A stretch of 64,000 nt of DNA, taken from Deltaproteobacteria bacterium HGW-Deltaproteobacteria-4 (lineage in GTDB: Bacteria; Desulfobacterota; Desulfuromonadia; Desulfuromonadales; UBA2197). Made by a program: the position numbers and the translations under genes. Within the stretch, counting starts at the first letter, position 1; the number at the start of each line of letters is the position of its first letter. Where the stretch lies: the NCBI GenBank assembly GCA_002841765.1, contig PHAV01000002.1, positions 201,604 through 265,603 of the forward strand, written 5' to 3'. Positions 4,792 to 36,315 of this stretch are shown here, in pieces. The notes beneath the pieces were generated by a model. It was not told where the DNA came from, searched no databases, and saw only the letters and a program-made list of their open reading frames with translations.

Positions 4792-4820
4792 GCTATCTAA
4801 TGATAAATAAAGGTAAATTT

Positions 4821-5882: not shown

Positions 5883-5946
5883 GTCGTGAGATATTGAACA
5901 GCGGTTCAGAGTGAGCACTTCGAACTTTGCTATGTCTGTATAAAGG

Positions 5947-8091
5947 ATGACCATGACCACGTTTTCGCCCCAACCGCAGCAGCCGGACGAAGTCCATCTC
6001 ACTGACTATCTCAACGTCCTCATGTCCCGCCGGAAGATCTTCCTTTTCGCTTTTCTGGCGGTCTTTTTCGGGGTGGCACTCTACACCTTTACCGTCAAGC
6101 CGGTCTTTGAAGCCTTTACTACCCTGCAGGTTCAGACACCGGGAGGGCAGGGAAGCCTGCTCGCAGAATTGGGAGGGAACGCCCAGAATCCCGTCGATAC
6201 CGAGATCGAAATTATCAAATCGCGCACCATGGCTGAGCAGGTCATCCTCCGCTTGCAGCCCCCTGGCGCCGTTGCTCTGTCCCCTGGGGAGCTTCATGAT
6301 GTTGCCAACCGGCTCAAAAGTGGCATCCTGGTCATGGAGGTCGGTAAAAAAACCGGCATCATCCGCCTTTCCTATAAGAGTACCGATCCGCGTCGCGCCC
6401 GCGATGTCGTCAATACCCTGGCTCAGGTCTATCAAGAGTACAACGTCGATTTCAAAAGCCAGGAAGCGAGCAAAACCCTCGAATTTATCGCCAGCCAGCT
6501 CGATTCGACCCAGAATGATCTCGACAGCGCCGAAAAGAATCTGCAGACTTTCAAGAGCAACAGCAGCGCGGTCACACTCGATGCTGCCAATTCCGACCTG
6601 GTCAGGCGATTGGCCGAGCTTGATACTCAATTGAGTGCTCTGGGGCTGCAGAAGAAACAGCTTGAATTTACCACCGCCTTGCTGCGTCAGGCCATGCAAA
6701 AGGGAGAGGTCCATACGCCTTCGGCAACTCTTCAGGATGGCATCGGCACCGACGGGCTCACCGCCCGCCTCGCTGAACTCGATGTGCAGCGGCAATCCCT
6801 CCTCAGTGAACTCTCCGAAGGCCATCCCCAGGTCAAGGCGCTGAAATCGCAGATCGACGAAGTGCAGAACAAGCTGTTGTCTACTTATGAAGCGACCCTC
6901 AAAGGAATCAGCCGGCAGGAAAGTGCCCTGCAGCAGGAGTTGGGGCGCTATGAGGGGGCGTTTCGCAAGCTCCCCGAGGCGGAGCGTGAGCTGGGCAGGT
7001 TGCTGCGCGTCACCAAGGTCAACGCTGATATCTATACTTTTCTGCTCCAGAAGCATGAGGAGGCGCGCATTACCAAGGCCGCCACGATCAGCAACATTTC
7101 AGTGGTCGATCCTGCTATCACCCCGTCCGCACCGATCAAACCCCAGAAGCAAAAGAATCTCCTCCTCGGTCTCCTGGCCGGACTGATGCTCGGAGCCGGA
7201 CTCGCCTTCTTCATCGAATACCTGGATGACACGATCAAGGGGGGAGAAGAGGCGCAGCGGGTGATCGGCGCCCCGATCCTGGCGGTGATCCCCTGCATAA
7301 GCAGCGACGAAGAAGAGAAATCCGATCCGCAAGCCTCAATGATCACCCATTTTCGCCCCAAGTCGGCCATCGCCGAGGCCTTTCGCTCCCTGCGGACCAG
7401 TCTCCACTTTTCGGCCATCAATCGCGAGAAACAGGTACTGATCATCACCAGCACCTTCCCTGGCGAAGGAAAGTCGACCATCGCCGCCAACCTCGCCATC
7501 ACCATGTCCCAGACCGGGGCCCGGGTGCTGGTGATCGACGGTGATCTGCGCCGGCCGTCACTGCACAGCAAGTTCAAGCACAGCAAGATCCCCGGCCTTG
7601 CCGAATTGCTGGCGGGAGACGTCGCGGCCGTCAGTGTCCTCCACAACACCGGCATCCCCAACCTCAGCCTGATTACCGCCGGAACCACTCCCCCCAACCC
7701 GGCCGAGCTTCTCGGCTCAGAGAAGATGGCCGAGCTCCTCACCGCCCTGCGCGCGCAATATGACCATATTATCATCGACGCCCCGCCGGTTCTGGCGGTC
7801 ACCGATGCGCCTCTTCTCACTAATCGCTGCGATCTGGTACTGGTTGTCCTTGAAACCGAGCGGGTGCCGGTCAAAGCTGCTCAGCGCATGGTCGAGATGC
7901 TTGCCAACGTTCAGGCGCCGGTAGGGGGGATCGTGATCAACGACAAATCCAATACCAGCATGGAGCGCTACGGCTACTACGGGCGGAATTATTCCACCTA
8001 CGACTACTACGCCGAGGATGAAGAATCCCAGGCCGAGCTGTCCCGCAAACGTAAGCAGAAGGCCTGGTGGCAGCGCGTCTTCCGCGGTTAG
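5947..8091 (+). CDS. wzc: Polysaccharide co-polymerase/tyrosine autokinase (Wzc family)
   Basis: N-terminal TM, coiled-coil periplasmic region, second TM, EAFRSLRT, Walker A GEGKST, IDGDLRRP, IIIDAPP, Tyr cluster YGYYGRNYSTYDYY. Confidence 0.95.
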   Translation: MTMTTFSPQPQQPDEVHLTDYLNVLMSRRKIFLFAFLAVFFGVALYTFTVKPVFEAFTTLQVQTPGGQGSLLAELGGNAQNPVDTEIEIIKSRTMAEQVILRLQPPGAVALSPGELHDVANRLKSGILVMEVGKKTGIIRLSYKSTDPRRARDVVNTLAQVYQEYNVDFKSQEASKTLEFIASQLDSTQNDLDSAEKNLQTFKSNSSAVTLDAANSDLVRRLAELDTQLSALGLQKKQLEFTTALLRQAMQKGEVHTPSATLQDGIGTDGLTARLAELDVQRQSLLSELSEGHPQVKALKSQIDEVQNKLLSTYEATLKGISRQESALQQELGRYEGAFRKLPEAERELGRLLRVTKVNADIYTFLLQKHEEARITKAATISNISVVDPAITPSAPIKPQKQKNLLLGLLAGLMLGAGLAFFIEYLDDTIKGGEEAQRVIGAPILAVIPCISSDEEEKSDPQASMITHFRPKSAIAEAFRSLRTSLHFSAINREKQVLIITSTFPGEGKSTIAANLAITMSQTGARVLVIDGDLRRPSLHSKFKHSKIPGLAELLAGDVAAVSVLHNTGIPNLSLITAGTTPPNPAELLGSEKMAELLTALRAQYDHIIIDAPPVLAVTDAPLLTNRCDLVLVVLETERVPVKAAQRMVEMLANVQAPVGGIVINDKSNTSMERYGYYGRNYSTYDYYAEDEESQAELSRKRKQKAWWQRVFRG

Positions 8092-8130
8092 AGCAGACAA
8101 CCTTCAAGATCGGGTTTCTCGCAAGGTTTT

Positions 8131-8260
8131 AGCTCCCCTCCTTTTTTAAGGAGGGGCTGGGGGGGGTAAGATTTTTGGTGTTGTCTTCGTTTTATCCTTA
8201 AGATTGATGAATATCAAAGCAACCACCCCTAACCCCTCCTTGGAAGGAAGGGGGGGGACT
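8131..8260. mobile_element. ~130 bp MITE-like element with ~37 bp imperfect terminal inverted repeats, each itself a hairpin
   Basis: Left end AGCTCCCCTCCTTTTTTAAGGAGGGGCTGGGGGGGGT, right end ACCACCCCTAACCCCTCCTTGGAAGGAAGGGGGGGACT, AT-rich non-coding core. Confidence 0.6.
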
Positions 8261-8408
8261 TAAGGCAACCAAAAACAAGATATAGTTTTCGTCCCTACAG
8301 ATTTTCACAGAATCTCACCGCGACAAAATTGATTCAGACCTTGCTTTCAACCGCTAAGATTATATGTAGAGCTCGCAAAGCAGATCATTTACGTGGAGGA
8401 ATGACTCA

Positions 8409-9692
8409 ATGAAAGAACGGATTATTTCAGTCGTCGGTCTTGGTTACGTCGGCCTCCCGGTCGCCGTCGCCTTTGGCAAATGCCGCAAAACCGTCGGTTT
8501 TGATATCAACCCCACCCGCATCGCCGAGCTCAAAGCCGGACACGACCGCACCGATGAAGTCACCGCCGACGACTTGGCGGCCGCCGATATCCTCTTTACC
8601 AATCAAATCAGCGAACTTTCCCTGGCGGATTTTCATATTGTCGCTGTCCCTACACCGGTTGACGATGCCAAACAACCTGATCTGACGCCGATGCTGCGCG
8701 CCTCCGAGACTGTCGGCAAAGCCCTGAAGAAGGGGGATATTGTGGTTTATGAATCGACCGTCTACCCCGGCGTCACTGAAGACGAATGCGTGCCGGTACT
8801 GGAGCGGTTCTCGGGACTGTGTTGCGGCCGCGACTTCACCGTCGGCTATTCACCGGAACGGATCAATCCCGGTGACAAGGAACACACCTTCACCAAAATC
8901 ACCAAGGTCGTGTCCGGTCAGGATGCCGCCACTCTCGATATCGTTGCCGAAGTTTACGGTTCGGTCGTTACCGCCGGCATCCACCGCGCCCCGTCGATCA
9001 AAGCCGCCGAGGCCTCCAAAGTGATCGAAAATACCCAGCGCGATCTCAATATCGCCCTGATGAACGAACTGGCGATCATCTTCGACCGCATGGGGATTGA
9101 TACCCGCGATGTCCTTGAAGCCGCTGGCACCAAGTGGAATTTCCTCAAATTTTCACCGGGGCTGGTCGGTGGCCACTGTATCGGCGTCGACCCTTATTAT
9201 CTCACCCATAAAGCCGAAAAGATCGGCTACATCCCCCAGGTCATCCTTGCCGGCCGTCGCATCAACGACGGCATGGGCAAGTTTATTGCCCAGCGCACCG
9301 TCAAGGAGATGAGTCTGGTCGGACACTGTCCCGGCAAAGCCGTTGTCACCGTCCTCGGCCTGACCTTCAAAGAGGATTGCCCGGATCTGCGTAATTCGCG
9401 GGTCATCGACATTATTCACGAATTGGAGGATTACGGGATTACTGTCCAGGTGCATGACCCCCACGGTGACGTCGCTGAGGCTCTCCACGAATACAATGTC
9501 CTCCTCGTTCCCTTTGCAGAACTGCAACCGGCTGCCGCCGTCGTCGTGGCGGTGGCGCACCAGGAGTATCGCGCTCTTTCGGTCGAACAGCTCAAGAAAC
9601 TGATGAAAGAAAATCCCGTCCTCATCGATGTCAAGTCGATTTGTGATCCGGTCGCAGTGCAAGGGGCGGGGATCCGTTTTTGGCGGCTGTAA
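8409..9692 (+). CDS. Nucleotide-sugar dehydrogenase (UDP-GlcNAc/GalNAc 6-dehydrogenase, WbpO/TviB-like)
   Basis: GLGYVGLP, YESTVYPG, GYSPERINPGD, KVIENTQRDLNIA, PGLVGGHCIGVDPYYL, GLTFKEDCPDLRNS. Confidence 0.92.
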   Translation: MKERIISVVGLGYVGLPVAVAFGKCRKTVGFDINPTRIAELKAGHDRTDEVTADDLAAADILFTNQISELSLADFHIVAVPTPVDDAKQPDLTPMLRASETVGKALKKGDIVVYESTVYPGVTEDECVPVLERFSGLCCGRDFTVGYSPERINPGDKEHTFTKITKVVSGQDAATLDIVAEVYGSVVTAGIHRAPSIKAAEASKVIENTQRDLNIALMNELAIIFDRMGIDTRDVLEAAGTKWNFLKFSPGLVGGHCIGVDPYYLTHKAEKIGYIPQVILAGRRINDGMGKFIAQRTVKEMSLVGHCPGKAVVTVLGLTFKEDCPDLRNSRVIDIIHELEDYGITVQVHDPHGDVAEALHEYNVLLVPFAELQPAAAVVVAVAHQEYRALSVEQLKKLMKENPVLIDVKSICDPVAVQGAGIRFWRL

Positions 9693-9722
9693 ACCAGACA
9701 AGCAGACAAGAGATTAACAGGG

Positions 9723-9810
9723 CGCAGATAACATCTGAAGAGGCATGATTAAGCATAGAGTTAAATGTTTAGACCAATCGGAAGTTATCAGTTTTGATCA
9801 GCGTCCCATG
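9723..9810. repeat. Dispersed non-coding repeat family B, copy 1
   Basis: 9733-9810 aligns by hand to 38886-38965 at 62/80 columns, same orientation. Confidence 0.75.
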
Positions 9811-10201
9811 GTACTGGTTCAGATTTTCATAGATTCGGGAGTCTGCGTCTCTTGATTTAAACCTAAGTATTCATAATCTTATATATTTATTGGCTTTAGT
9901 TGCTGTAAGGGGAAAAGTAAAGGATTTTCTAAATTATTTTTTTCAAATTAAAATATAAGTCATATAGTCTACATTAGCAATATTGCTAAGTTAGAAAAAA
10001 TTGTTTTGCCCCGCCAAACATCCTGAACTCCTCCCCCCCTTGCATAAAACTGCTCTTTCCCCCCATAGTTTGATTAAGTAAATCCCCTACTTTTGACTGG
10101 GGAATCTACCCGTCGCGTTGTGAGCTAATTTCTGCCGGTTGGGCAGTTTAGTGCTGATTGACTTTTTATTGCATTGAATTATTTTAATTCAGGGAGGTTT
10201 C

Positions 10202-10780
10202 ATGCGTTCACTATTCTTGCGGGGTTTTATCCTCCTTGCCCTCCTTGGCGGCTTGCTGCCGTCCAGCCTCTGTCACGCAGCTGACACCAGATATAAACGT
10301 TCGGTAGAGAAATATACGATTCCGGATGTGACCCTGACCAATCAGGATGGCAAAAAAGTTCAGCTGAAGTCCCTCCTTGAAGCCGACCATCCCGTTGTTG
10401 TCGACTTTATCTATGGCACCTGTACCACCATCTGTCCGGTTCTCTCTGTCGGTTTTCTCAATCTGCAAAAGAAAGTCACGGCCAGCGGCGGCAAGGTGAA
10501 GCTGGTCTCGATCACGATCGACCCGGAAAATGATAACCCCAAGATCTTGAAAGAATATCTGCAGCGTTATCGCGCCAAGCCGGGCTGGGATTTCCTGACC
10601 GGCAGTCGTGCGGACATCAATACGGTGATGCGGGCCTTTGATGCCTATATTCCCGACAAGATGTCGCACTATCCGATCAACCTCATCCGTTCCCCCAAGG
10701 ACGGCAGCTGGGTGCGTCTCTTCGGCATCATGAGCGGCAAAGAGTTTATAGACGAGTATCAACAGGTGACAGGGAAATGA
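10202..10780 (+). CDS. SCO1/SenC-family copper chaperone, exported
   Basis: Signal peptide, DVTLTNQDGK, CxxxC (CTTIC), VSITIDPENDNP, WDFLTG, conserved His (MSH). Confidence 0.9.
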   Translation: MRSLFLRGFILLALLGGLLPSSLCHAADTRYKRSVEKYTIPDVTLTNQDGKKVQLKSLLEADHPVVVDFIYGTCTTICPVLSVGFLNLQKKVTASGGKVKLVSITIDPENDNPKILKEYLQRYRAKPGWDFLTGSRADINTVMRAFDAYIPDKMSHYPINLIRSPKDGSWVRLFGIMSGKEFIDEYQQVTGK

Positions 10781-12474
10781 CCCGCATCGGGATATTCTTG
10801 CTTGTCTGGTTTTTCATCTCCTTCGGACCGCGCGCTCAGGCCGAGGACCAGGGGATGACGACCAAGCTCAGCAATGCCGAGATCATGCGTCTCGGCGAAC
10901 AGATGTACCGGTATGGCCTTCTCCCTTCCGGTGAACCGATGGAAGCCTTCATTCGTGGCGATATTCCCGTCGACAGCACGGCTTTTTCGTGCTCCAGCTG
11001 CCATCTGCGCGCCGGACTGGGATCTTATGAAGGGGGTGTCGTCACCCCGCCGACCACCGGGCGCCGGCTTTATCAACCCTATCGGCGGCCCCCCTCCTTT
11101 GATGACGTCATTGACCAGGCCGGCCGTTATGTTTATGCCAAGACCATCCCGCATCGCGGCGCTTATAGCAAAGAGAGTCTGGCGATTGCTCTGTGGAATG
11201 GCATCGACCCGGGCGGCCAGGAGTTCAATCCGGTCATGCCGCGTTATCTGCTGTCTGAGCGCGATATGGATATTTTGATCCGCTATCTCGAAGAGCTCTC
11301 GGCGAACGATTCACCCGGAGTGACCGGGTCTTCTTTTTCTTTTGCGACGATTATCACCGACGATGTCAGCGCCGAAGACCGTCAGGCCTTGCTCGTCCCC
11401 CTCGAGCGCTTTGTCGCCGCAAGAAATCAGCAGGTCCGGATGTATGACGATTTCATCAAGTTCGGTTATACCCCGACGAACGATATGAAGTATGCCTTCC
11501 GTCCGGCGTCGCTGACCGTCTGGGAGCTCAAGGGGCCGCCGGAGACCTGGCCGGACCAGTTGCAGGCCTATTACGACAAGGGACCGGTCTTTGCCATCCT
11601 TGGCGGGATATCCAATAGCGATTGGCGCCCGATCCACGAATTTTGCGAAGCGCAGCGTTTGCCTTGTCTCTACCCGATCACCAATTACCCGGTGGTCTCC
11701 GAAACGGATTGGTACACCGTCTATTTCAACAAAGGTTTTTATCAGGAAGGGGAGGGGGCGGCCCTTTACCTGAAGAATAGCGAAGACTTCTCCGAAGATG
11801 ACAAAATTCTGCAGCTGGTGCAGGATTCCCTCGCCGGCAAGGCTCTGTCCGCCGGATTTGACAATACCTGGAGCAACTTGCAGCGCCCGGCGGCCAAGAC
11901 TCTCCTCCTCAGTAAAGAACAGCTCCTTGACCAAAAGTTTTTGGCGGCCCTGTTGAAAAAGAATAAAGCCGATGTCCTGCTCCTCTGGGGCGACGGCGAT
12001 CTGGTCCCGGCGCTGCCGGCCATCGTCTCCAAGCTGGCGGCCGGAGCGCAGATCTTTGTTTCATCGACCTTCCTCGGCAAAGAAACCTCCTTGATCGCCG
12101 AATCAATCCGGAGCCGGGTCTTTATTACCTTTCCGTTTCGGTTGACCCCTTTTGTCGGTTCCAAAGAGAGTTTTGACGCCAAGGTTCCGACTCTGACCAC
12201 CGCCAAAGATTTCGGTGACCGCAGGATCACCAGTCGCACCGAGACCATGCTGCAGCAGTCCGCTCTGCAGGGGTTAAAACTCCTTTACGACAACCTTTTT
12301 CGCGATTATTTACTGGATGTCATGAGCATGCAGATGGATCAAATCGTCTTTGATTATGAACGTCTCAGTTTTGGTCCCGGACAACGCTACACCTCTAAGG
12401 GATGTTACATCCTGCAGCTCGGCGCAGGAGCGGATCCGCAGTTAATCCCCCGTAGTGAGTGGGTGATGCATTAA
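10777..12474 (+). CDS. Monoheme c-type cytochrome fused to a periplasmic-binding-protein-like domain
   Basis: Signal peptide, single CxxCH (CSSCH), MPRY distal Met, C-terminal alpha/beta region (VFAILGG, LPCLYP); ATGA overlap with SCO gene. Confidence 0.75.
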   Translation: MTRIGIFLLVWFFISFGPRAQAEDQGMTTKLSNAEIMRLGEQMYRYGLLPSGEPMEAFIRGDIPVDSTAFSCSSCHLRAGLGSYEGGVVTPPTTGRRLYQPYRRPPSFDDVIDQAGRYVYAKTIPHRGAYSKESLAIALWNGIDPGGQEFNPVMPRYLLSERDMDILIRYLEELSANDSPGVTGSSFSFATIITDDVSAEDRQALLVPLERFVAARNQQVRMYDDFIKFGYTPTNDMKYAFRPASLTVWELKGPPETWPDQLQAYYDKGPVFAILGGISNSDWRPIHEFCEAQRLPCLYPITNYPVVSETDWYTVYFNKGFYQEGEGAALYLKNSEDFSEDDKILQLVQDSLAGKALSAGFDNTWSNLQRPAAKTLLLSKEQLLDQKFLAALLKKNKADVLLLWGDGDLVPALPAIVSKLAAGAQIFVSSTFLGKETSLIAESIRSRVFITFPFRLTPFVGSKESFDAKVPTLTTAKDFGDRRITSRTETMLQQSALQGLKLLYDNLFRDYLLDVMSMQMDQIVFDYERLSFGPGQRYTSKGCYILQLGAGADPQLIPRSEWVMH

Positions 12475-12619
12475 GTAAAAAACGCGCAGGAACAACACAA
12501 AGACCACTTATGGGACAAAGTCGTCCTGAATAGTTATAAATGGCGCAAAACTGGTCTGTTGACACTGTCGTCGATAGCCAAAGATTTTTAGAAACAACAA
12601 AGATTTGGGAGGTATTTTA

Positions 12620-15600
12620 ATGAAGAAACAAGTGTCGAAAGTTTTTTGGAGGCTGGGGCTGTTCACCGCCCTGACAACCCTTGGAGGGGGGCTGGCGTTT
12701 GCGGCTGACACAGTCGAGGATCCGATTCTCGCTGCGAAAACCGCTCAGGTTTATAGCCAGATGGAGCAGCGCGTCACCGATGAAGAGCGGGCCCAGGCAG
12801 CGGCGGCCCTCAAGGCTTTGCGCATACAGGTCTATGAAGCCAAAAAGGCGGTCGCCAAGTCGAAGGATGGCGCTCCGGCCAAAGGGATCGAAGTGCTTGA
12901 TTTCAAAGCCATCCCCACCGGCCCCTTTGACGCCAATGGCAAACCGTCCGTTCCCGACTACTACACCACCGCCAACTGGGCGAACAGTCCCCCTTTGGCG
13001 AAATTTGTCGATACCCTGCCGGGTCTTGGCCCGGACAATGCCAACAATCTCGGCAAATATCTGCCGGTTGCGGTCCCGGATACCGTGACTTATCCGGGCT
13101 CGGACTATTACGAGATCGATCTCGTCGAATACAATCAGCAAATGCACTCCGACCTCCCCAAATCAGGGACCAAGCTCCGTGGTTACGTGCAGGCCAACGT
13201 CAATGGGGGAAGCAACACGGCCTGTGGGAACGAGACTGGCGTCGAGTGTAATGATCCCATGCCGGTTCTTTATCTCGGTCCGGTGATCGTCTCCGAAAGA
13301 GACCGTCCGGTCCGCATCAAGTTCACCAACCGTCTCCCGAATACCGGAGCCGGCGGCGATCTCTTTATCCCGGTTGACACCTCGGTCATGGGCGCCGGGA
13401 CCGGCCCGGCTTATATGGGGGTCAGTCGCGGTTTAGGTGAGCCTTGCAACAACGATGTCGAACCGAATGGCTGCGCTACGTATCCGCAGAATCGCGGTAA
13501 CATCCATATGCATGGCGGACGCACTCCCTGGATCAGTGACGGGACGCCGCATCAGTGGATTACTCCCGCCGATGAGAATACCCCCTTCGTTAAAGGGGTA
13601 AGTCTGCAGAATGTTCCGGATATGCCCGATCCGGGGGACGGCGCATCGACCTATTACTTCACCAACCAGCAAAGCGCCCGGTTGATGTTCTATCATGACC
13701 ATTCCTTCGGCATTACCCGCCTCAACGTTTATGTCGGTGGAGCCGCCGGATACCTGATCACCGATGAGTATGAACAGGAGTTGATTAACGATGGTCTTAT
13801 CCCCGAAGACCAGATCCCTCTGGTGCTGCAGGATAAAACTTTTGTCGATGCGTCCGAGATTCGCAAATACGATCCCCTCTGGAACTGGGGCAGCGGCGCC
13901 GTTGACCCGGTGACCAAAGTCCGCGAGCCGGTCGAAGGCGACCTCTGGCTGCCGCATGTCTATATGCCTGCCCAAACCTCGATCGCCGGCTTCGGCGGCG
14001 TCAATCCTTTCGGGCGCTGGATGTATGGCCCCTGGTTCTACCCGGCGACAGCCGTGGAAAAAGGACCGGTTGCCAACCCCTATTACGATCCGGATTGCAG
14101 CAGCACAGTCCCCTATATCCTTGCCGACTGCCAAACTCCCGGCCAGCCGGAACAGATCCCCGGCACTCCCAACACCTCGATGGGGATGGAAGCTTTTCAG
14201 GATAGCGTCGTCGTGAACGGGACAGCTTTCCCGACCCTGACGGTCGATCCCCGGGCTTATCGTTTCCGCATTCTTAATGCGGCCAGCGACCGCTTCTGGA
14301 ATCTCTCATTCTATGAAGCCGACTCTGACCCGAACAATATCAGCCCCGATCCACGCCTCGACCCGACTTCCCCGAGTTATCTGCCCGGTCGTTCCAACAG
14401 AACCGAAGTCAAAATCCTGCCGGCCTCCATTGATCTCGCCAAGCAGAACAATTGGCCGGAAAACTGGCCGGTTGACGGCCGCGACGGCGGCGTCCCCGAC
14501 CCCGCGACCAAGGGTCCGAGCTTTCTGCAGATCGGGACCGAAGGCGGTTTCCTGCCGAAACCGACCATCCGCGAGGCGCAGCCGGTCACCTGGATGAGCG
14601 ATCCCACCGCTTTCTGGGTCGGCGTGGTTGACAAAACCGGTCTGGCCCTCGGCCCGGCCGAGCGTGCCGACGTTATCGTTGACTTCAGCGCGTATGCCGG
14701 CAAAACCCTCATCCTTTACAACGATGCACCGGCCGCGTGGCCAGCTCGCGTGGCCAGCTACGATTACTTCACCGGCGCAGAAGATCTGCGTTCCGGCGGC
14801 GGTTACGGTGCCGGCGGAGTCTACAATCCGATCACCGGTGAATGGGAAGGCGGCCACGGCATTCTGCCCGGTTATGCCCCGAATACCCGGACGGTCATGC
14901 AGATCGTCGTCACCGGCGGCACCTCCGGCTTGGAGGCTGTCGATGAACCCTACGAATTCGACCCGGTTGCCCTGCATGAAGTGTTTGTCCCCACTGATCC
15001 GGAAACCGAAAGTCTCTTCTCCCGGGCCCAAGAGCCGATCATTGTCGGTCAAGCGGCTTATCAGGATGTGTATCCTGATTCCTACTTCCCGACCAACTTC
15101 CCCTGGGAAGGGGTCTCCCAGATTAACGACCAGATGCTTAATTTCGTGACGGTCAATAACACCGTTGACAACCCGCAGCATGTTGTCGCCATTCAGGAGC
15201 CCAAAGGGATTCATGATGAAATGGGCGCTTCTTTCGACCCGATCTACGGTCGGATGAGCGGTAACCTCGCCATGCAGTTGCCCAACCCCACCACCCTCAA
15301 TGCCCTGCTGATCCTTTATGGCTTCTCGGATATTCCGACCGAAGTCATCGAAAACTCGACAGAGCTGGATGTCAGTATTGTCCCCGGCACCACCACCCTG
15401 GCCGATGGCACCCAGATCTGGAAGATTTCGCACAACGGGGTCGATACCCACCCGATTCACTTCCATATCTTCGACGTGCAGTTGATCAATCGCGTCGGCT
15501 GGGATGGCCAGATTGCCCTCCCCGAAGAGAACGAGCTTGGCTGGAAAGACACCATCAAAGTCAGCCCGCTCATGGACACCATCGTTGCCGTACGGCCCCG

Positions 15601-18600
15601 TGCTCCGGCACTCCCCTTCGGCATCACCAACAGTCTGCGCCCGCTCAATCCAGCCATCCCGATCGATTCACCGATGGGCTTCAACAGCGTCGACTGGCAA
15701 ACCGGCGAAGCGAGAAACGAAGCGGTCACCAATGTCCTGTACAACTTCGGTTGGGAGTATGTCTGGCATTGCCACATCCTCAGCCATGAAGAGATGGATA
15801 TGATGCGGCCGATCGTGCTGAATGTCGCTACCGCCAAAGTGAGTGATTTCAGCTCCCCGGCCCCTGGCACTGCTCCGCAGGGTGTCGATGTCACCTGGAT
15901 GGATCCGACCCCGGTTGATTATGAAAATAATAGCGGTTTCGGCAATCCTGACAACGAAATCGGTTTCAAAATCTGGCGCTCCGCCGGCGCTACCGGCCCT
16001 TACACCAAGGTCGGCGCAGCTCTTGCCAACCAGACCACCTATAACGATAAAGACGGCTCCATTGCTGACGATTATGTCATCGAAGCTTTCAACGCCAGCG
16101 GCTCGACCTTCTCCTGGGTGAGTCCGGTCTCCCTTACTGTTGATGGCGGCTTTATTGCCCCGGCCACATTCACCCTGACGGCGACCGTCACACAGCCCTT
16201 GCTCCAGAGCGTCACCAAGGTGGAGTTCTTCAACGGCGACACCCTGATCGGCACTGATCTTGACGCTCCTTACACGGTCACTTTAACAGGGATGCAGCAA
16301 GGGTCTTTCGATTTAAAGGCGAGAGCCACGACCGATACACCGACAGAGAAAGGCCTTGAGGCTTTTGATACACTGACAGTCGATGTCAACACCAGTGGTC
16401 TGGCTGCTGATTTCACCGTCAATAACGGCGTTGAAATCGGCGTTTGTGATACCAGCACCCTTTATGACGCCAGCACCGGTGGCACCGCTACGGCCTGGGA
16501 ATGGCTGGTCAACGGCGTGACTTACACCACGCAAAATCCTGACCTCCCCGTCCTTCCGGCCGGGATTTACCCTGTCACCCTGAAAGTCACCGGCACCAGC
16601 GGTGAAGTCGCATCGGTGACCCAAGATGTAGAAATTGTCAATCATCCCCCGACCGCCGATGCCGGTGGACCGTACACGCTCAATTTTAATGGGACCGTTG
16701 CTCTTACAGGTTCCGGTGCTGATGCTCTCGATCCCTGCAACACCGCTTTCACCTATGCCTGGGATATTGATGGTGATGGAACATTTGAATATTCGCCCAA
16801 TCGGACGATCAGGTATTCCGTTATCCAGCCTTTACTTGGCTCGGGCGATTATCCGATCACCTTTAAAGTGACGGATTCAGGTGGTGCGTTTGCTACGGCT
16901 GATACAACTTTAAGTGTCGGGCCGGCACCGAATGCTGATGCTCCGGCAACCATCACTGTTCCGGCGTACAGTTCGACCGGCAGCTACACCATCTCCTGGG
17001 CTCCGGCAACCATCGTCGGCGCGACCTACACCCTCGAAGAAGCGACGGATAGCAATTTTACTAACGCCACCGTCGTCGCTTCCGGACTCACCACCACCTC
17101 AAAAGCGATTACCGGCAAGACCGGTGGTCTTTACTTTTATCGTGTCCAAACCATCGCCGTCGCCACCGTCCCCAGTACCTGGACCGCTGGTAATAACCCC
17201 TGCGCTATTCTGATCACGGCCATAACTGACCCTGTCAACGGCGCAAACTTCAATCCCGGCCAGTTGACGGCCATTGTCGGGACTGCGACCACCCCGACTG
17301 GTTATGTTGTCGCCAGCATGGCGTTTTACGAAAACGGTGTCCTGATCGGTACGGACAGCGATGGCGCACCTTATACCGTCGCTTACAACCCGACCAGTGG
17401 CGCCCACCTCCTGACCGCGACCACGACTTATGTTGGTGGCGCAGTATCGCCTTCATCTGATGTGGCGATTGCAATTGCCGGGGTCGATGCACCGGTCCTG
17501 ACCACAAGCAGCGCAATCTATGATCTTGGTGGCACCATCACCTTGAATGTCACACCGGCAGCCGTTGTCGGGGTTTTTCCTGTACCGACAGTTGTCGCTG
17601 TTGCCTACTATGAAAATGGCACACCCATTGGCTTTGATGACACTGCACCGTACAGCTTGGCCTGGGTACCGGCGACGGGTGGTGCAAAGGGTGTGACGGC
17701 TGTGGCTCTTTACAGCAATGGCATGTCAGCGACTTCGGCGGTGTTGTCGTTGTCATTGAACACGCAGGTTGCTGCTCCTGGTTTGATTTCTGTGCCAACC
17801 ACTAGTCCGACCGGGACTTATACAGTATCGTGGGGAGCCTCGGCGACGAGTGAAGTGACTTATGTGCTGGAAGAGTCTACGACAAATACTTTTGATGTCG
17901 TGACGTCACATCTGCCATCTAATTGGGCAACGACATCATTTGATATTATGGGAAAGTCTGGCGGGACATATTACTATCGCGTCTCGGCTGTGAAAGCCCC
18001 AATGGTAGCTAGTAATTGGACTGTTGATGGGAATGGTATATTTGTCGGTGCTCAAGCTCCTGCATTACTCAGCGTACCTGCGATCCCAACTAACGGGAAG
18101 GCCACCGTTCTGGCAGCAACCTCGCCAACACCTGGTGCAATATATCTCTTCGAATACAGCACTGACGGTTCGACTTGGACTGTAGCCTCTAATAGCACCA
18201 ATCGCGAGCCAATCATCACCTTACCGGCTCCGAATAACTACCAGTTCCGGGTTTCGGTGACAGCTACAGGCTATCAGCAGAGCAAATACACCGCTGGAAG
18301 TAATAATTGTAATTGGGTTGTTGTCCAAGCAACGGCACCGGTGACATTATCTGTTCCCGTAGCTCCAACCAACAGCAAGGTTGCTGTTCTGGCTGCGACC
18401 TCGCCGACGCCCGGTGCAATTTATCTTTTCGAATATAGTACTAACGGGGCGACATGGAGTATTGGCTCTAATAGTACTAATCGCGGGCCAACAATCACAT
18501 TGCCGGCACCCGGCAACTACCAGTTCCGGGTTTCAGTGACAGCAACCAATTTTACGCAGAGCGATTACACATCTGGCACTAATAACTGCAACTGGGTAGT

Positions 18601-19723
18601 CGTGCCAGCAACTGCACCTTCAACGCTATCTGTACCCCTGACTTCAACGAATGGGAAGGTCACGGTCCTGGCCGCAACCTCACCGACGCCGGGTGCTATT
18701 TATCTTGTCGAATACAGCACTAACGGATCGACCTGGAGTATCGGCTCCAATAGCACTAATCGCGGGCCAACCATCACACTGCCGGCACCTGGCAACTATC
18801 AGTTCCGGGTTTCAGTGACAGCAAGCAATTTTACGAAGAGCAGTTACACCCTTGGTAGCAACAACTGCAGCTGGGTAGCACCTCCTGCTACAGCACCGTC
18901 GTCTTTAAGTGTCCCTGCAATATCAACCAACGGAACAGTTGCATTGTTGGCGTCAATCTCTGCGACACCTAGTGCTATTTATTTGTTCGAATACAGTGTT
19001 GACGGTTCGACTTGGAGTACTGGCTATAGCGGTACAAATATTAACCCAACCATAACCCTGCCGGCTTCTGGCAACTACCAGTTCCGGGTTTCAGTAACAT
19101 CAGCAGCCTTTTCACAAAGTACGTTCACAATGGGCGGTAACAACTGTTATTGGTCAGGTGTAGTCCAGGCAGCGGCGCCAACAAGCCTGTCTGTACCCGT
19201 AGCGCCAACCGATGGAAAGGTTACGGTACTGGCCGCAACCTCGCCAACGCCGGGCGCGATTTATCTTGTCGAATACAGTACCGACGGTTTGACCTGGTCG
19301 AGTATCGGCTCAAATAACAGCGGACGCCAACCAACTATCACCCTGCCTGCCCCTGGCAACTACCAGTTCCGTGTTTCGGTGACAGCCGCAGGATATGCAC
19401 AAAGCACTTACACTGCCGGTAACAATAACTGCAATTGGGTGATTGTACCTGCAACGGCACCAGCGACACTGTCTGTGCCTTTAACTACAACGATCGGGAA
19501 GGTCACGGTTCTGGCCGCTACCTCACCGACGCCGGGTGCTATTTATCTTGTCGAATACAGTACCGACGGTTTGACCTGGTCGAGTATCGGCTCTAATAAC
19601 AGCGGACGCGAACCAACCATCACACTGCCAGCACCTGGTAACTATCAGTTCCGCGTATCGGTGACCGCAACGAACTTCACACAAAGTGGTTTCACCACTG
19701 GCAGTAATAATTGTAGCTGGTAG
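12620..19723 (+). CDS. Giant secreted multicopper oxidase (OmpB-like) with Ig-like, PKD, Fn3 domains and six C-terminal repeats
   Basis: All four MCO copper motifs: HMH (13505), HDH (13694), HPIHFH (15449), HCHILSHEEMDM (15767); Sec-type signal ending AFA; RBS GGAGG before ATG 12620. Confidence 0.92.
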   Translation: MKKQVSKVFWRLGLFTALTTLGGGLAFAADTVEDPILAAKTAQVYSQMEQRVTDEERAQAAAALKALRIQVYEAKKAVAKSKDGAPAKGIEVLDFKAIPTGPFDANGKPSVPDYYTTANWANSPPLAKFVDTLPGLGPDNANNLGKYLPVAVPDTVTYPGSDYYEIDLVEYNQQMHSDLPKSGTKLRGYVQANVNGGSNTACGNETGVECNDPMPVLYLGPVIVSERDRPVRIKFTNRLPNTGAGGDLFIPVDTSVMGAGTGPAYMGVSRGLGEPCNNDVEPNGCATYPQNRGNIHMHGGRTPWISDGTPHQWITPADENTPFVKGVSLQNVPDMPDPGDGASTYYFTNQQSARLMFYHDHSFGITRLNVYVGGAAGYLITDEYEQELINDGLIPEDQIPLVLQDKTFVDASEIRKYDPLWNWGSGAVDPVTKVREPVEGDLWLPHVYMPAQTSIAGFGGVNPFGRWMYGPWFYPATAVEKGPVANPYYDPDCSSTVPYILADCQTPGQPEQIPGTPNTSMGMEAFQDSVVVNGTAFPTLTVDPRAYRFRILNAASDRFWNLSFYEADSDPNNISPDPRLDPTSPSYLPGRSNRTEVKILPASIDLAKQNNWPENWPVDGRDGGVPDPATKGPSFLQIGTEGGFLPKPTIREAQPVTWMSDPTAFWVGVVDKTGLALGPAERADVIVDFSAYAGKTLILYNDAPAAWPARVASYDYFTGAEDLRSGGGYGAGGVYNPITGEWEGGHGILPGYAPNTRTVMQIVVTGGTSGLEAVDEPYEFDPVALHEVFVPTDPETESLFSRAQEPIIVGQAAYQDVYPDSYFPTNFPWEGVSQINDQMLNFVTVNNTVDNPQHVVAIQEPKGIHDEMGASFDPIYGRMSGNLAMQLPNPTTLNALLILYGFSDIPTEVIENSTELDVSIVPGTTTLADGTQIWKISHNGVDTHPIHFHIFDVQLINRVGWDGQIALPEENELGWKDTIKVSPLMDTIVAVRPRAPALPFGITNSLRPLNPAIPIDSPMGFNSVDWQTGEARNEAVTNVLYNFGWEYVWHCHILSHEEMDMMRPIVLNVATAKVSDFSSPAPGTAPQGVDVTWMDPTPVDYENNSGFGNPDNEIGFKIWRSAGATGPYTKVGAALANQTTYNDKDGSIADDYVIEAFNASGSTFSWVSPVSLTVDGGFIAPATFTLTATVTQPLLQSVTKVEFFNGDTLIGTDLDAPYTVTLTGMQQGSFDLKARATTDTPTEKGLEAFDTLTVDVNTSGLAADFTVNNGVEIGVCDTSTLYDASTGGTATAWEWLVNGVTYTTQNPDLPVLPAGIYPVTLKVTGTSGEVASVTQDVEIVNHPPTADAGGPYTLNFNGTVALTGSGADALDPCNTAFTYAWDIDGDGTFEYSPNRTIRYSVIQPLLGSGDYPITFKVTDSGGAFATADTTLSVGPAPNADAPATITVPAYSSTGSYTISWAPATIVGATYTLEEATDSNFTNATVVASGLTTTSKAITGKTGGLYFYRVQTIAVATVPSTWTAGNNPCAILITAITDPVNGANFNPGQLTAIVGTATTPTGYVVASMAFYENGVLIGTDSDGAPYTVAYNPTSGAHLLTATTTYVGGAVSPSSDVAIAIAGVDAPVLTTSSAIYDLGGTITLNVTPAAVVGVFPVPTVVAVAYYENGTPIGFDDTAPYSLAWVPATGGAKGVTAVALYSNGMSATSAVLSLSLNTQVAAPGLISVPTTSPTGTYTVSWGASATSEVTYVLEESTTNTFDVVTSHLPSNWATTSFDIMGKSGGTYYYRVSAVKAPMVASNWTVDGNGIFVGAQAPALLSVPAIPTNGKATVLAATSPTPGAIYLFEYSTDGSTWTVASNSTNREPIITLPAPNNYQFRVSVTATGYQQSKYTAGSNNCNWVVVQATAPVTLSVPVAPTNSKVAVLAATSPTPGAIYLFEYSTNGATWSIGSNSTNRGPTITLPAPGNYQFRVSVTATNFTQSDYTSGTNNCNWVVVPATAPSTLSVPLTSTNGKVTVLAATSPTPGAIYLVEYSTNGSTWSIGSNSTNRGPTITLPAPGNYQFRVSVTASNFTKSSYTLGSNNCSWVAPPATAPSSLSVPAISTNGTVALLASISATPSAIYLFEYSVDGSTWSTGYSGTNINPTITLPASGNYQFRVSVTSAAFSQSTFTMGGNNCYWSGVVQAAAPTSLSVPVAPTDGKVTVLAATSPTPGAIYLVEYSTDGLTWSSIGSNNSGRQPTITLPAPGNYQFRVSVTAAGYAQSTYTAGNNNCNWVIVPATAPATLSVPLTTTIGKVTVLAATSPTPGAIYLVEYSTDGLTWSSIGSNNSGREPTITLPAPGNYQFRVSVTATNFTQSGFTTGSNNCSW
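18044..19720 (+). repeat. Six tandem intragenic repeats of 279-282 bp (93-94 aa)
   Basis: Units start at about 18044, 18323, 18602, 18881, 19163, 19445; consensus AP..LSVP....GKVTVLAATSPTPGAIYL.EYST.G.TW...PTITLPAPGNYQFRVSVTA..NNC.W. Confidence 0.95.
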
Positions 19724-19752
19724 TTGTTAAGTCTGTTATATAGTTGTTCATG

Positions 19753-19790
19753 AACAAACCCCGTCTTATTAGACGGGGTTTGTTTTATTT
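19753..19790 (+). terminator. Rho-independent terminator after the multicopper oxidase
   Basis: 14-bp stem AACAAACCCCGTCT/AGACGGGGTTTGTT, TATT loop, followed by TTATTTT. Confidence 0.9.
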
Positions 19791-19960: not shown

Positions 19961-21430
19961 GTGTCTAATCTTAAAAATAAAATTGTCTCCAGTCTCTCCT
20001 GGAACTTCATGAGTCAAGGGGTTACACAAGTTGTTTCATTATTAATCATGATCCTGCTCACTAGGTTGTTGTCGCCCCGTGAGTTTGGATTAGTGGCGAT
20101 GGTAACGGCAATTTCAGGCTTCGTCGGCATCTTTGCCGAAATGGGGCTTGGCGCCGCTTTGATTCATCAACAGAAGATAGACGACGAACAGTTATCCTCG
20201 GTCTTTTGGCTTAACCTGTTCCTTGGTGTGGTACTCACAGCTGTCTTTGTGTTGGCTGCCCCTTTGGTTGCCGATTTTTATAATGAACCTCTCTTGTTGG
20301 GCATCACGATAGTTGTCGCGTTAAATTTTATTATCAATGCGTTAACCATTGTTCAACGGATACTCGCCACCAAGGCACTCGACTTTCAGACATTAGCAAT
20401 CTCAGAAGTTGCATCGACTCTAATATCTGGTGGCATTGTCCTCTTCTTAGCCTATCAGGGGTACAGTTACTGGAGCATCGTTTGGCAAACTTTGATCATT
20501 TCTGTTGTCAGCAACATAATCCTCTGGCAACGTAGCACCTGGCGTCCCCGATTTTGTTTTAGTTTTGCTTCGATTCGTGGCCTGATGCGTTTTGGAGGGT
20601 ATGTTATCGGCACCCATACTCTCGATTACTGGACGCGCAATATCGATAATCTTCTTATCGGAAAATTTTTTGGTTCAGAAGTCCTCGGACTTTACTCCCG
20701 CGCTTATTCCTTTCTTGTTTTCAGAATTAACAGTGTCTCTCGGATTGTTTCCAGAGTTTTCTTTCCAGCCATTGCCGGGATACAGCATGACAAAGAAAGG
20801 GTCAAAAAGATCTTTCTTAAGACAATCGGTGCCATAGCGTTGGTTACCTTTCCACTGACGGTAGGTCTCTTTGCGACAGCAGACAACTTTGTTTTGACCT
20901 TACTCGGCGCCCGCTGGATGGAGATGGTGCCGATCGTGCGTGCCCTTTGCCTGCTTGGTCTGACGACGGCAGCTGGTTCGTTGACCGCAAACATCTTTCT
21001 TTCACAAGGTGAATCGGGTCTCCATTTTCGTCTCGGATTGATCCTTAAAATGACAGTTGTCGCTGGCATTGTACTCGGTCTGCGGTGGGGAGCCTTTGGG
21101 GTAGCTCTTTGCTACGGTTTGGTGACACTGGTGAACGTCTATCCCACTATCCGCATAGCCGGTCGCCTCATTGGGATGGGTTTTAACGAGTACCTTAAAA
21201 CATTGGCTCCAGCCTTTACTTGTTCTTTGATCATGGCGGGTCCGGTCTGGATATTGCCGAAACTCATCTTCACGGACAATGCTGTTTGGCTGATTCTAAT
21301 CACGCAAATATTGTTGGGAGGAGTGCTGTACGTCGGCACCCTACATCTGTTCCGAATTAAAATTTATCTGGAAATTTTAGAGCTCATGCAGGTTAAATTG
21401 TACGGCAAATCGACGCATATAAAGTGTTAA
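19961..21430 (+). CDS. wzx: Wzx flippase (PST family)
   Basis: Multi-pass hydrophobic protein; LTRLLSPREFGLVAM, EMGLGAALI, IDNLLIGKFFGSEVLGLYSRAY. Confidence 0.9.
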   Translation: MSNLKNKIVSSLSWNFMSQGVTQVVSLLIMILLTRLLSPREFGLVAMVTAISGFVGIFAEMGLGAALIHQQKIDDEQLSSVFWLNLFLGVVLTAVFVLAAPLVADFYNEPLLLGITIVVALNFIINALTIVQRILATKALDFQTLAISEVASTLISGGIVLFLAYQGYSYWSIVWQTLIISVVSNIILWQRSTWRPRFCFSFASIRGLMRFGGYVIGTHTLDYWTRNIDNLLIGKFFGSEVLGLYSRAYSFLVFRINSVSRIVSRVFFPAIAGIQHDKERVKKIFLKTIGAIALVTFPLTVGLFATADNFVLTLLGARWMEMVPIVRALCLLGLTTAAGSLTANIFLSQGESGLHFRLGLILKMTVVAGIVLGLRWGAFGVALCYGLVTLVNVYPTIRIAGRLIGMGFNEYLKTLAPAFTCSLIMAGPVWILPKLIFTDNAVWLILITQILLGGVLYVGTLHLFRIKIYLEILELMQVKLYGKSTHIKC

Positions 21431-21443
21431 TGGAATATTTTTT

Positions 21444-22751
21444 ATGAAAATTCTTATAGTTTCACGTTACTGTGCTCCTCCAAGTTTTCATGGTTCGGCA
21501 CAACATGTTCAGACCTTCGCCAAAGCCTTGGTCGAAGGCGGACATGAGGTTCGGGTTATTTCTGGTGAAGAGGAAGCAGGAACAATTGAGGTCGACGGTT
21601 ACACTGTCACTAAAGTGCAGCTACCACCACAAGCGAAGGGATTCCAAAGACTTCTCGATGGTCGATTCCCAGACGTGCACAACCGTAGACTGGCGGCCAC
21701 GATTTTTGAGAGTTGGAAACCAGATGTCTTGCATGTCGGTGTTTTCATGCGGATGGGTGAGTTTATTTTTGAGGCAGCAGAGAGAAAAATACCTGTAGTG
21801 TTGATGGTGCATGATTACGCCATGCTTTGCCTGAAAAAGTATCTGCAACATTCCGACGGGTCTGTCTGTAACGGGCCACAACCACAATTATGTCATAAAT
21901 GTATTAAGCAAACAGCCGGTTCGAGACTTCGCTTTTTTAGTTCGTTGACAGCTTTTCCTGGAACCGGGCTTCTTTTGGGTCGGGAAAGACATATCAATTT
22001 CCAGCTCGATCGCGCCGTCAAGGAATCTTTCATTTTTATGGAACATCTGCGCTCTGTTGTGAATCGCTATATCGTGCAAACACCGTTGGCTCCTGGAATT
22101 CTCGCATCGTGCGGCATCCCTGAAGAGCGTTGCTACTTTGTCCAGCAATTCATAGGCGAAGAAAAACTCGTTCATTATCCGAAAGCCAGCGGGGTCCCGG
22201 GGACGGATCGTCCTATACGGATTGGTTATGTTGGTCGCTGGTCGGCAGAAAAAGGGATTGAAGTACTCAGCGACGCATGCCGAACTTTTGGCGAAAATGA
22301 TGTTGAAGTATGGCTGATTGCCAAAGGGGCTGATTTACAGTCGGTAAAAGCCTTGTTCGGCGATGAAGCCGTGGATGCAGGAAGAGTAAGGCTCTTCAAT
22401 GATCTCGCTGGTGCCCGCTTAGCCGCGCAGATCGCACAGTTGGATGTTATGGTGATTCCCTCCATATGTCACGACAATAGCCCTCGCGTTCACCTTGAAG
22501 CGTTGGCTCAGGGAGTTCCGACTATCGTTTCCGATTCGGTCGGCAACCGCCATTTGATTTGCGACGGGATCAGCGGTCGCATCTTTCCCAGCGGTGATGC
22601 AATTGTCTTGGCAAAAATTTTACAAGAAATTGTCGAAAATCCCAGAATACTTGATGAGTGGCGGAATCAGTTGACTAAATTGCCAGATAGACAAGAATGG
22701 TATCAGTCACTATTACAGGTCCATCAAGACTTAGTTACGGTCAAATCATGA
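21444..22751 (+). CDS. Glycosyltransferase family 4
   Basis: MKILIVS, GHEVRVI, HDYAMLC, GYVGRWSAEKG, PSICHDNSPRVHLEALAQGVP. Confidence 0.88.
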   Translation: MKILIVSRYCAPPSFHGSAQHVQTFAKALVEGGHEVRVISGEEEAGTIEVDGYTVTKVQLPPQAKGFQRLLDGRFPDVHNRRLAATIFESWKPDVLHVGVFMRMGEFIFEAAERKIPVVLMVHDYAMLCLKKYLQHSDGSVCNGPQPQLCHKCIKQTAGSRLRFFSSLTAFPGTGLLLGRERHINFQLDRAVKESFIFMEHLRSVVNRYIVQTPLAPGILASCGIPEERCYFVQQFIGEEKLVHYPKASGVPGTDRPIRIGYVGRWSAEKGIEVLSDACRTFGENDVEVWLIAKGADLQSVKALFGDEAVDAGRVRLFNDLAGARLAAQIAQLDVMVIPSICHDNSPRVHLEALAQGVPTIVSDSVGNRHLICDGISGRIFPSGDAIVLAKILQEIVENPRILDEWRNQLTKLPDRQEWYQSLLQVHQDLVTVKS

Positions 22752-26105: not shown

Positions 26106-26109
26106 TTTC

Positions 26110-28322: not shown

Positions 28323-28369
28323 GTCTTCGGGCGGAAAACAGGTTTTCCCAGCTATTTTCATGTCAGGTC

Positions 28370-34904: not shown

Positions 34905-35153
34905 ATGCCTGAAATATGTCGCTTTCTTGGTATTGTTATCAGTATGTATTTTGATGAACACAACCCGCCACTCTTTCACGTCAAGTATAATGAACATAAA
35001 GCAGTCGTAGCGATATAAACCCTCAACATTCTGGACGGTCATCTCCCTGCCCGTGTCCGCGGGCTTATTGAAGAATGGGCAGAGTTACATCAGGATGAAT
35101 TGCTGAGCATGTGGGAATCACAAGAATTTCATAAAATTAAACCACTTGTCTAG
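34905..35153 (+). pseudogene. DUF4160-like gene with in-frame TAA at codon 38
   Basis: MPEICRFLGIVISMYFDEHNPPLFHVKYNEHKAVVAI*TLNILDGHLPARVRGLIEEWAELHQDELLSMW; AGGAG RBS; TAA at 35016-35018. Confidence 0.8.
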
Positions 35154-35163
35154 GAGGCCTGCC

Positions 35164-35457: not shown

Positions 35458-35495
35458 AGGCTCGTTCTCAAGATTCTCTCCGAGTCCTCTGTCCC

Positions 35496-35660: not shown

Positions 35661-35723
35661 TAAAGCCAAAAGGAGCCAGCCGGCAGTCGCCGCATAGATT
35701 GTTTGGGAGACACGTTTTTTATT

Positions 35724-36297: not shown

Positions 36298-36315
36298 GGT
36301 TATGACCTCCTTTTT

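Follow-up and report, generated by a model that had tools for sequence, protein, structure and literature searches.

A probable Mof/OmpB-type operon for an extracellular multicopper oxidase at the seam of an exopolysaccharide locus in a deltaproteobacterium

Three genes for exported proteins and their boundaries

We analyzed a stretch of 64,000 nucleotides of Deltaproteobacteria bacterium HGW-Deltaproteobacteria-4 (GCA_002841765.1; contig PHAV01000002.1, positions 201,604-265,603 of the forward strand), hereafter the window. At positions 10202-19723 it carries three co-oriented genes for exported proteins: a SCO1/SenC-family protein (SCO), a MofC-like fusion of a cytochrome c to a periplasmic binding protein (PBP), and a giant multicopper oxidase (MCO). 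This module lies within a locus for exopolysaccharide (EPS), between wza-wzc-ugd on one side and wzx with glycosyltransferase genes on the other, and all three products have Sec-type signal peptides, as read from their translations. An initial annotation, made from the sequence alone, had already placed three such genes there and named them correctly, as confirmed by the match of SCO to PF02630, by the CSSCH motif and binding-protein fold of the fusion protein, and by the CotA-type copper motifs of the MCO.

The SCO protein scored 70 bits against PF02630 (cut-off 22.8; E=2e-19). It contains CTTIC at residues 74-78 (C74xxxC78) and a distal His156, all of them kept in at least 95% of the 37 orthologues compared, and its stop codon overlaps the start of the MofC-like gene by 4 nucleotides.

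In the MofC-like protein, a cytochrome c domain (about residues 30-175) is followed by a type-I PBP domain (about residues 185-565). The heme motif CSSCH is located at residues 72-76 (nucleotides 10990-11004), and C72, C75, H76, M154 and P155 were invariant across 74 homologues, down to 28% identity; C72, C75 and H76 together with Met154 make up a predicted covalent heme site with a distal methionine ligand. The AF2 model built from the alignment of these 74 sequences (pLDDT 89, pTM 0.89) superseded an earlier, poor one from 17 sequences (pLDDT 62). The C-terminal 400 residues or so gave Foldseek matches to LIVBP-type binding proteins with E-values of about 1e-15 to 1e-12 and a TM-score of about 0.6 against the target, at no more than 15% identity, and the cytochrome c/PBP fusion is absent from solved structures. 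Hundreds of Geobacteraceae/Desulfuromonadales sequences share about 65% identity with the protein, and the family comprises 603 clusters at 50% identity (E<=1e-30), nearly all of them full length. A methionine-rich MSMQMD motif like that of Cu(I) sites (residues 516-521; window 12322-12339) was shared without exception by 17 Geobacteraceae-type MofC proteins; the idea of a Cu(I) site common to the whole family was dropped, since the motif is not conserved outside the Geobacteraceae subclade.

The open reading frame (ORF) of the MCO spans 12605-19723 on the plus strand, and its most likely start is the ATG at 12620, 8 nucleotides after GGGAGG, which gives a protein of 2367 residues. Its catalytic core matched CotA in the PDB with an E-value of about 1e-34. 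The four copper motifs, HMHGG (residues 296-300), YHDH (358-361), HPIHFH (944-949) and HCHILSHEEMDMM (1050-1062), all align to the CotA ligands, and both the T1 site (His, Cys, His, Met) and the eight His of the T2/T3 cluster, arranged in HxH motifs, are kept. The MCO thus shares all copper-ligand motifs and the domain order with CotA laccase and bilirubin oxidase (PDB 1GSK, 9BD5, 2XLL). It differs from them in that the catalytic region is about twice as long through insertions, in its fused N-terminal segment and tail of about 1270 residues, and in having dedicated SCO and MofC partners encoded alongside it. More than 100 large MCOs share 55-82% identity with the core, and the MCO is 55-72% identical to those of Trichlorobacter, Geopsychrobacter and metagenome-assembled genomes of Geobacteraceae. 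A look-up of cluster members among the homologues yielded no protein named OmpB.

The tail is composed of Big_7, PKD, two fn3-like units and six repeats of 93-95 residues, each ending in NNCxW (Pfam, with fn3/Ig/PKD matches in the PDB); the repeats show a tandem period of 279 nucleotides at 18074-19720, with about 71-77% identity. Tails among the related large MCOs are diverse, with FG-GAP, Big_7, PKD, fn3 and He_PIG domains, and with cell-wall-binding repeats in Coriobacteriia. The same core of about 1000 residues was seen in Coriobacteriia/Anaerosomatales proteins carrying the cell-wall-binding repeats PF04122 (P0327, P0334, P0338, P0341, P0344-P0347; 53-62% identity), most of these alignments spanning only about 45% of the query; such homologues would place the MCO core on the surface of Gram-positive anaerobes too.

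Related loci are given below by L numbers; a scan of one genome per species yielded 43 loci, whose ORFs were labeled by phmmer. About 30 relatives have a separate gene for a small exported protein of about 90 residues before the MCO gene, the small protein and the MCO each having its own signal peptide. A hidden Markov model (HMM) built from 35 small ORFs matched residues 12-98 of the window MCO (E=1e-20), and the MCO's own signal peptide is gone; both observations indicate a gene fusion, which is in frame and common to the window, L002 (14042-), L054 (10001-) and L055 (2770-). Because it is fused to the MCO, the small protein would act directly on the oxidase, most likely in cis as a pro-region or chaperone. 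A gene for an S8 peptidase adjoins the module in L002, L054, L031 and L042; speculatively, the enzyme could process the fused segment.

The module has its own AT-rich upstream region and a strong terminator, as the initial annotation had stated (Table 1). The upstream region, which is probably the promoter/regulatory region of the module, can be aligned over about 240 nucleotides with the DNA upstream of SCO in L055, despite the different upstream gene of that locus, so the module takes its own regulatory DNA into different contexts. Sigma-70-like hexamers are present at 9940-9968 and 10158-10185, in a number not above chance, and a sigma-54 candidate picked by eye upstream of SCO (about 10139-10155) was rejected with 7 of 11 positions by hand count. 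The terminator hairpin begins 29 nucleotides beyond the MCO stop codon, has inverted arms that are perfect over 14 nucleotides, and was the best terminator-like site in the part of the window scanned for such sites (8-21.5 kb), where their total was not above shuffled expectation. A sub-threshold Rfam match to the "rnk leader", the only Rfam hit, was merely this terminator. No family match was found for antisense ORFs in the region.

Neither direct repeats or insertion scars nor mobility genes were found flanking the module. Its GC content (52-58%) groups with that of the wza-wzc-ugd block and the genome backbone (57-60%) and falls to 46-51% only past the terminator, from wzx on. The module therefore lies at the seam of the locus and is not a foreign insert inside it: it is an old resident beside the conserved export block, not a recent insert. 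Of the initial view that the module is embedded inside the EPS locus, the flanking by EPS genes stands; the position at a seam, with the GC break only at wzx, does not fit it.

Table 1. Features of the module and of the surrounding polysaccharide locus (window positions)
Feature	Position	Strand	Basis
AT-rich non-coding upstream region, 509 nt	9693-10201	+	37% GC; no ORF of 80 aa or more
SCO1/SenC-family periplasmic copper chaperone or thiol-disulfide protein, 192 aa, signal peptide	10202-10780	+	PF02630
MofC-like protein, 565 aa: signal peptide, class-I monoheme cytochrome c, type-I PBP	10777-12474	+	Motifs, AF2, Foldseek
MCO, N-terminal part (former small exported protein; supplies the signal peptide)	12620-12910	+	HMM match
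MCO, CotA/bilirubin-oxidase-like three-domain catalytic core, about 1000 aa, large insertions	12911-15904	+	PDB matches
MCO, C-terminal beta-sandwich tail, about 1270 aa	15905-19723	+	Pfam and PDB matches
Intrinsic terminator closing the module	19752-19785	+	15-pair stem, 7 G-C pairs, loop of 4, T tract
Phosphoglucomutase	2369-3790	+	Pfam
Conserved EPS export block	4036-9692	+	Pfam; GC 57-59%
CpsB/CapC-type (CpsB/PHP type) phosphatase	4036-4791	+	Pfam
Wza	4800-5882	+	Pfam
Wzc	5947-8091	+	Pfam
UDP-sugar dehydrogenase (ugd)	8409-9692	+	Pfam
Variable EPS block	19961-40787	+	Pfam; GC 46-51%
Wzx	19961-21430	+	Pfam
Wzy-like membrane protein, 487 aa	28370-29833	+	Position; 68% identity to the equivalent L051 gene
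DUF2442	35146-35457		
MazF-like toxin	35724-36092	-	
MazE/PrlF-like antitoxin	36067-36348	-	
PIN-domain toxin	36738-37151		
Phd-like	38239-38499		
RelE/HigB-like	38496-38771		
WecA-type initiating transferase	39135-40787	+	Pfam

Relation to the mof and ompB gene clusters

In Geobacter sulfurreducens, the oxidase gene ompB (GSU1394) occurs with GSU1397, which codes for a MofC-like protein with a cytochrome c and a periplasmic binding domain, and with the SCO1/SenC gene GSU1398, a cluster that has been related to mofA-mofB-mofC of Leptothrix (He et al., 2017; PMC5566968). The SCO and cytochrome genes that the initial annotation had placed near Geobacter ompB are thus in the published cluster. 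OmpB was reported to be a surface protein that is secreted folded through type II secretion and has a single fibronectin type III domain, and MofB, an FKBP-type prolyl isomerase belonging to the Leptothrix form, was reported absent in G. sulfurreducens (PMC5566968). The mof operon of Rubrivivax sp. A210 has five genes: mofA, mofB, mofC, a metallochaperone gene and a gene for an exported unknown protein (PMC8218464).

The window holds the features of this cluster type, that is, a large exported MCO with four copper motifs, an adjacent MofC-type gene and an adjacent SCO1/SenC gene. Compared with the ompB cluster (GSU1394, GSU1395, GSU1397, GSU1398), the same three families are found in the same order (SCO, cytochrome c/PBP fusion, large secreted MCO) in an organism of the same bacterial order. 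The window differs in the fusion of the small protein to the MCO, in a tail about twice as long as that of OmpB, with Big_7/PKD units and six 93-residue repeats, and in its location within an EPS locus. GSU1394 and GSU1395 are listed together as down-regulated. The small gene next to ompB probably corresponds to the small exported protein fused here. With the mofA-mofB-mofC form of Leptothrix discophora and that of Rubrivivax sp. A210 the window shares the large MCO and MofC, a cytochrome c domain protein, and the five genes of the Rubrivivax form make up the same five-part module that the Geobacteraceae relatives have. Unlike the Leptothrix operon, the window has no mofB, and its host is a deltaproteobacterial-type anaerobe instead of a sheathed betaproteobacterium. 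To our knowledge, no Mn oxidation is known for this host.

Among the relatives, the block FKBP (MofB)-SCO-MofC-small exported protein-MCO was found in about 35 Geobacteraceae/Desulfuromonadales loci, often preceded by genes for a PAS sensor kinase and a sigma-54 regulator. Since the triad has been published as the mofABC/ompB cluster type and is a conserved block in these relatives, it is not an undescribed system, and its designation by the initial annotation as the best candidate for an undescribed coupled system had to be given up. Cluster composition and the literature description tie the module to the named proteins and indicate that it is most probably a Mof/OmpB-type operon for an extracellular MCO, lying at the seam between the export block and the wzx-glycosyltransferase block. 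What is new here is the fused small protein and a recurrent EPS neighborhood, both modest; no description of such a neighborhood for Mof/OmpB modules was found in the literature searched.

Several observations weigh against this explanation. No FKBP (MofB) homologue was found anywhere in the window, compared with more than 30 related loci that have it; MofB does not define the Geobacter form of the cluster. The window also contains no sigma-54 regulator or two-component system and, at a threshold of 8 of 11 specified positions, no sigma-54 promoter; regulation therefore differs from that of most relatives. Type II secretion genes are also missing from the window, though a T2SS-E gene lies near the module in some relatives. 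In the 8-21.5 kb scan no terminator was found between ugd and SCO, so that read-through from the EPS export genes into SCO is possible. Finally, the role given to MofC in the mechanism proposed below is a guess.

Further genes recur around the module in the relatives. In L003, L005, L013, L022, L025, L030 and L038, genes for NosL, an FtsX-type permease, an ABC ATPase and an unknown protein of 330 residues are often found beside it, and genes for an unknown protein of 430 residues and a T2SS-E/MshE ATPase often follow it downstream in relatives. The NosL/FtsX/ABC and T2SS-E neighbors may form an accessory set for copper supply and secretion, no member of which is present in the window; the accessory proteins unk430, unk330 and unk258 and the small protein belong to no Pfam family. 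Good sigma-54 -24/-12 sites (TGGCAC-N5-CTGCT) were seen 85-120 nucleotides upstream of the small ORF in L015, L023, L028, L037 and L049, with an activator encoded nearby in several of them, and a sixth good site lies upstream of FKBP in L048. In L002 (3080-9852), L008, L010 and L012, next to the main module or upstream of FKBP, there is also a second and divergent MofC paralogue with 41% identity. Its partner is an MCO of another, smaller type (664-1299 residues), and the MofC-MCO pairing is thereby repeated with another oxidase family.

Relation to the polysaccharide genes

The plus-strand locus around the module is a Wzx/Wzy-type polysaccharide cluster (ORF listing and Pfam scans) with Wza, Wzc, a phosphatase, a Wzx flippase, glycosyltransferases and an initiating transferase, all by Pfam. 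Its variable block contains nine glycosyltransferases (GT4/GT2), a Wzy-like protein for which nothing in Pfam passed the cut-off, a DegT aminotransferase and a block of small genes, then the WecA-type transferase, beyond which housekeeping genes follow. The WecA-type protein is long (550 residues), with its Glycos_transf_4 domain confined to residues 75-230, and the AT skew is unusually strong (-0.33) at 39-41 kb. Inside the EPS locus, between the last GT2 gene and the WecA-type gene, there is also a toxin-antitoxin cluster (35146-38771).

Eight genes of the variable block, wzx-GT4-GT2-GT4-GT-GT4-Wzy-like-GT4 (window 19961-30978), are collinear with the metagenome contigs L050-L052 (L051 9914-21363) at 56-73% amino acid identity. 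On the side upstream of wzx, these contigs carry sugar-nucleotide genes and HepT/MNT and HicA toxin-antitoxin pairs, without the oxidase. The GC content of 46-51%, against 57% in the rest of the window, suggests that the wzx-glycosyltransferase part is an exchangeable serotype cassette. The locus resembles group-1-capsule-like, Wzx/Wzy-dependent loci (wza-wzb-wzc, then a serotype-specific block) in having a conserved export block followed by a lower-GC exchangeable wzx/wzy/glycosyltransferase block, with a terminator-like element at the junction; Escherichia coli K30 has an attenuator at this point. It differs from them in the 10-kb redox-enzyme operon that fills the junction, in a phosphatase of the CpsB/PHP type and in the toxin-antitoxin genes embedded further downstream.

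EPS genes within 10 kb of the module were scored in those 29 distinct loci whose flank spans 8 kb or more. Twelve of the 29 had them, in several architectures, and 11 had core export/polymerization genes; the other 17 had no EPS gene nearby. In L002, the sister of the window in the neighbor-joining MofC tree, the oxidase modules are flanked by a 54%-identical wzc on one side and an unrelated wzx on the other. In L039, wza (47%) and wzc (44%) are followed by regulators, SCO and MofC in the same direction, and L009 has an 80%-identical ugd 200 nucleotides from the module in divergent orientation. A divergent Wzc-Wza-Wzi-CapD cluster is located 0.7-0.9 kb upstream of FKBP in at least six loci, and WecG-GT4-Wzy-GT4 is found no more than 150 nucleotides downstream of the module in two. 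Altogether, the module flanks contain seven Wza genes in about 330 kb, or about 21 per Mb, spread over five or more branches of the MofC tree; this density would amount to about 85 copies per 4-Mb genome, and we know of no such genome with that many. A loose, recurrent association of these modules with surface-polymer loci is likely to be real.

The closest relatives of the window have other surroundings. Upstream of the module, L054, which has the closest MCO (82%), carries genes for a sensor kinase, a sigma-54 regulator and an S8 peptidase, and L055, with the closest MofC (75%), a different gene. A metagenome scan for close relatives added a single locus, which lacks EPS genes and has a sigma-54 two-component system on its upstream side. 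Synteny in relatives, the comparison put forward in the initial annotation, thus supported its expectation in part, through the module of L002 between wzc and wzx and the 12 loci with EPS genes, and failed it in the 17 loci without them, in the cassette without a module and in the differing L054 and L055. As judged from these neighborhoods, adjacency to EPS genes appears to reflect a recurrent but dispensable linkage.

A neutral explanation is that the junction between conserved and variable blocks is a recombination seam that gathers cargo, the oxidase module being a passenger without any tie to the polymer. Toxin-antitoxin genes are found at the equivalent junction in L002 (an NTP_transf_2 pair on the wzc side) and in L050-L052, and within the window locus as the MazEF/PIN/Phd-RelE cluster at 35.1-38.8 kb, which indicates that such junctions collect unrelated cargo; the exchangeable, lower-GC cassette and the capacity of the module to bring its own upstream region into different contexts point the same way. 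On the other hand, the module matches the backbone in GC content and has no flanking repeats or mobility genes, and EPS adjacency in at least four architectures across the MofC tree is not readily due to chance. We regard neutral lodging as a serious possibility, though one that falls short of being probable.

Alternatively, the genes may be kept together because the polysaccharide of the locus anchors the oxidase, or because the oxidase modifies or cross-links the polymer or mineralizes metals on it. The position of the L002 module, with a related Wzc despite unrelated wzx genes, the arrangements in L039 and L009, the divergent and downstream EPS clusters of the other loci and a Wza density far above what is plausible genome-wide all favor such a dedicated coupling, as does the lack of a terminator between ugd and SCO. 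In addition, mofA and wza/wzb/wzc were both highly expressed in mats of L. ochracea (PMC11412304). Against it stand the 17 loci without EPS genes, the other upstream neighbors of L054 and L055, and the collinear cassette of L050-L052, which exists without a module. The strong terminator insulates the module from wzx, and the tail has only generic Ig/PKD/fn3-like units, with no confident carbohydrate-binding module (weak summed F5/8-type-C and lectin-like scores, no single domain passing). No sequence signs of anchoring of the MCO to polysaccharide, or of its modification by the MCO, were seen. A functional dependence of the module on EPS is, from gene content and order, possible but less likely than not, and the broader proposal that Mof/OmpB oxidase modules of the Geobacteraceae/Desulfuromonadales clade are genetically and functionally coupled to Wza/Wzc export is slightly less likely still.

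Two further explanations concern single genes. The MCO could be a periplasmic enzyme of copper homeostasis of the CueO/PcoA type, which detoxifies Cu(I) with the help of SCO instead of working at the surface, given the adjacent copper chaperone, the NosL-type copper lipoproteins in relatives and a weak NCBIfam match to CueO (E=1e-12, well short of the cut-off). This is very improbable: structurally the MCO comes closest to CotA and bilirubin oxidase and not to CueO, it lacks a Tat signal and the Met-rich insert of CueO, its tail of about 1270 residues is adhesin-like, the cell-wall-binding repeats of the Gram-positive homologues point to the surface, and OmpB was reported as a surface protein (PMC5566968). 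That the middle gene codes for the substrate-binding protein of an amino-acid ABC transporter and has no connection with the oxidase, as its LIVBP-like fold and the name "ABC transporter substrate-binding protein" of its homologues would have it, is scarcely credible, as the name is misleading for a PBP fold with an invariant covalent-heme site and distal Met, the Peripla_BP_6 match is weak (24.4 against a Pfam gathering cut-off of 31.7), no importer permease or ATPase genes are linked to it in the window, the FtsX/ABC pair beside the module in relatives is of another transporter type, and the gene keeps its place between SCO and MCO throughout about 35 loci, where stop and start codons overlap.

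Proposed working and significance of the operon

SCO, the MofC-like protein and the oxidase are exported by Sec, as their signal peptides show. If the module works as a Mof/OmpB-type operon, periplasmic SCO, with its CxxxC and His, would supply or handle copper for the oxidase, as its family suggests. The His/Met-ligated heme c of MofC might serve as a one-electron relay, and its PBP domain might dock the oxidase or a ligand or serve maturation. By analogy with the type II secretion of OmpB, the folded, copper-loaded oxidase would then cross the outer membrane, where its beta-sandwich tail could act as a spacer or adhesin that holds the CotA-like core off the cell. At the surface, the core, with intact T1, T2 and T3 ligands, would take electrons from a one-electron donor, be it Fe(II), Mn(II), Cu(I) or a phenolic, and pass them to O2, yielding water.

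A part in Fe(III)-oxide reduction and Mn/Fe oxidation has repeatedly been ascribed to oxidases of the OmpB/MofA type, and the window offers three leads on them: the natural fusion, which indicates that the oxidase itself is the target of the small exported protein; the very large MofC family, in which a binding-protein fold bears a His/Met heme site that does not vary; and a polysaccharide-export neighborhood that is recurrent but not obligatory. The Mn-oxidizing factor of Leptothrix is associated with the sheath or exopolymer. Were coupling to Wza/Wzc export true, a parallel to that sheath-bound factor would exist in a redox-active capsule or sheath-like matrix, in which an anionic polymer would hold the giant oxidase off the cell while it oxidizes or mineralizes Fe/Mn or scavenges O2, and the fused small protein and MofC would be assembly factors. 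If the EPS neighborhood is not functional, the module adds one more ordinary example to an operon family already described; if it is, matrix polysaccharide would be linked to extracellular copper redox chemistry in metal-cycling anaerobes.

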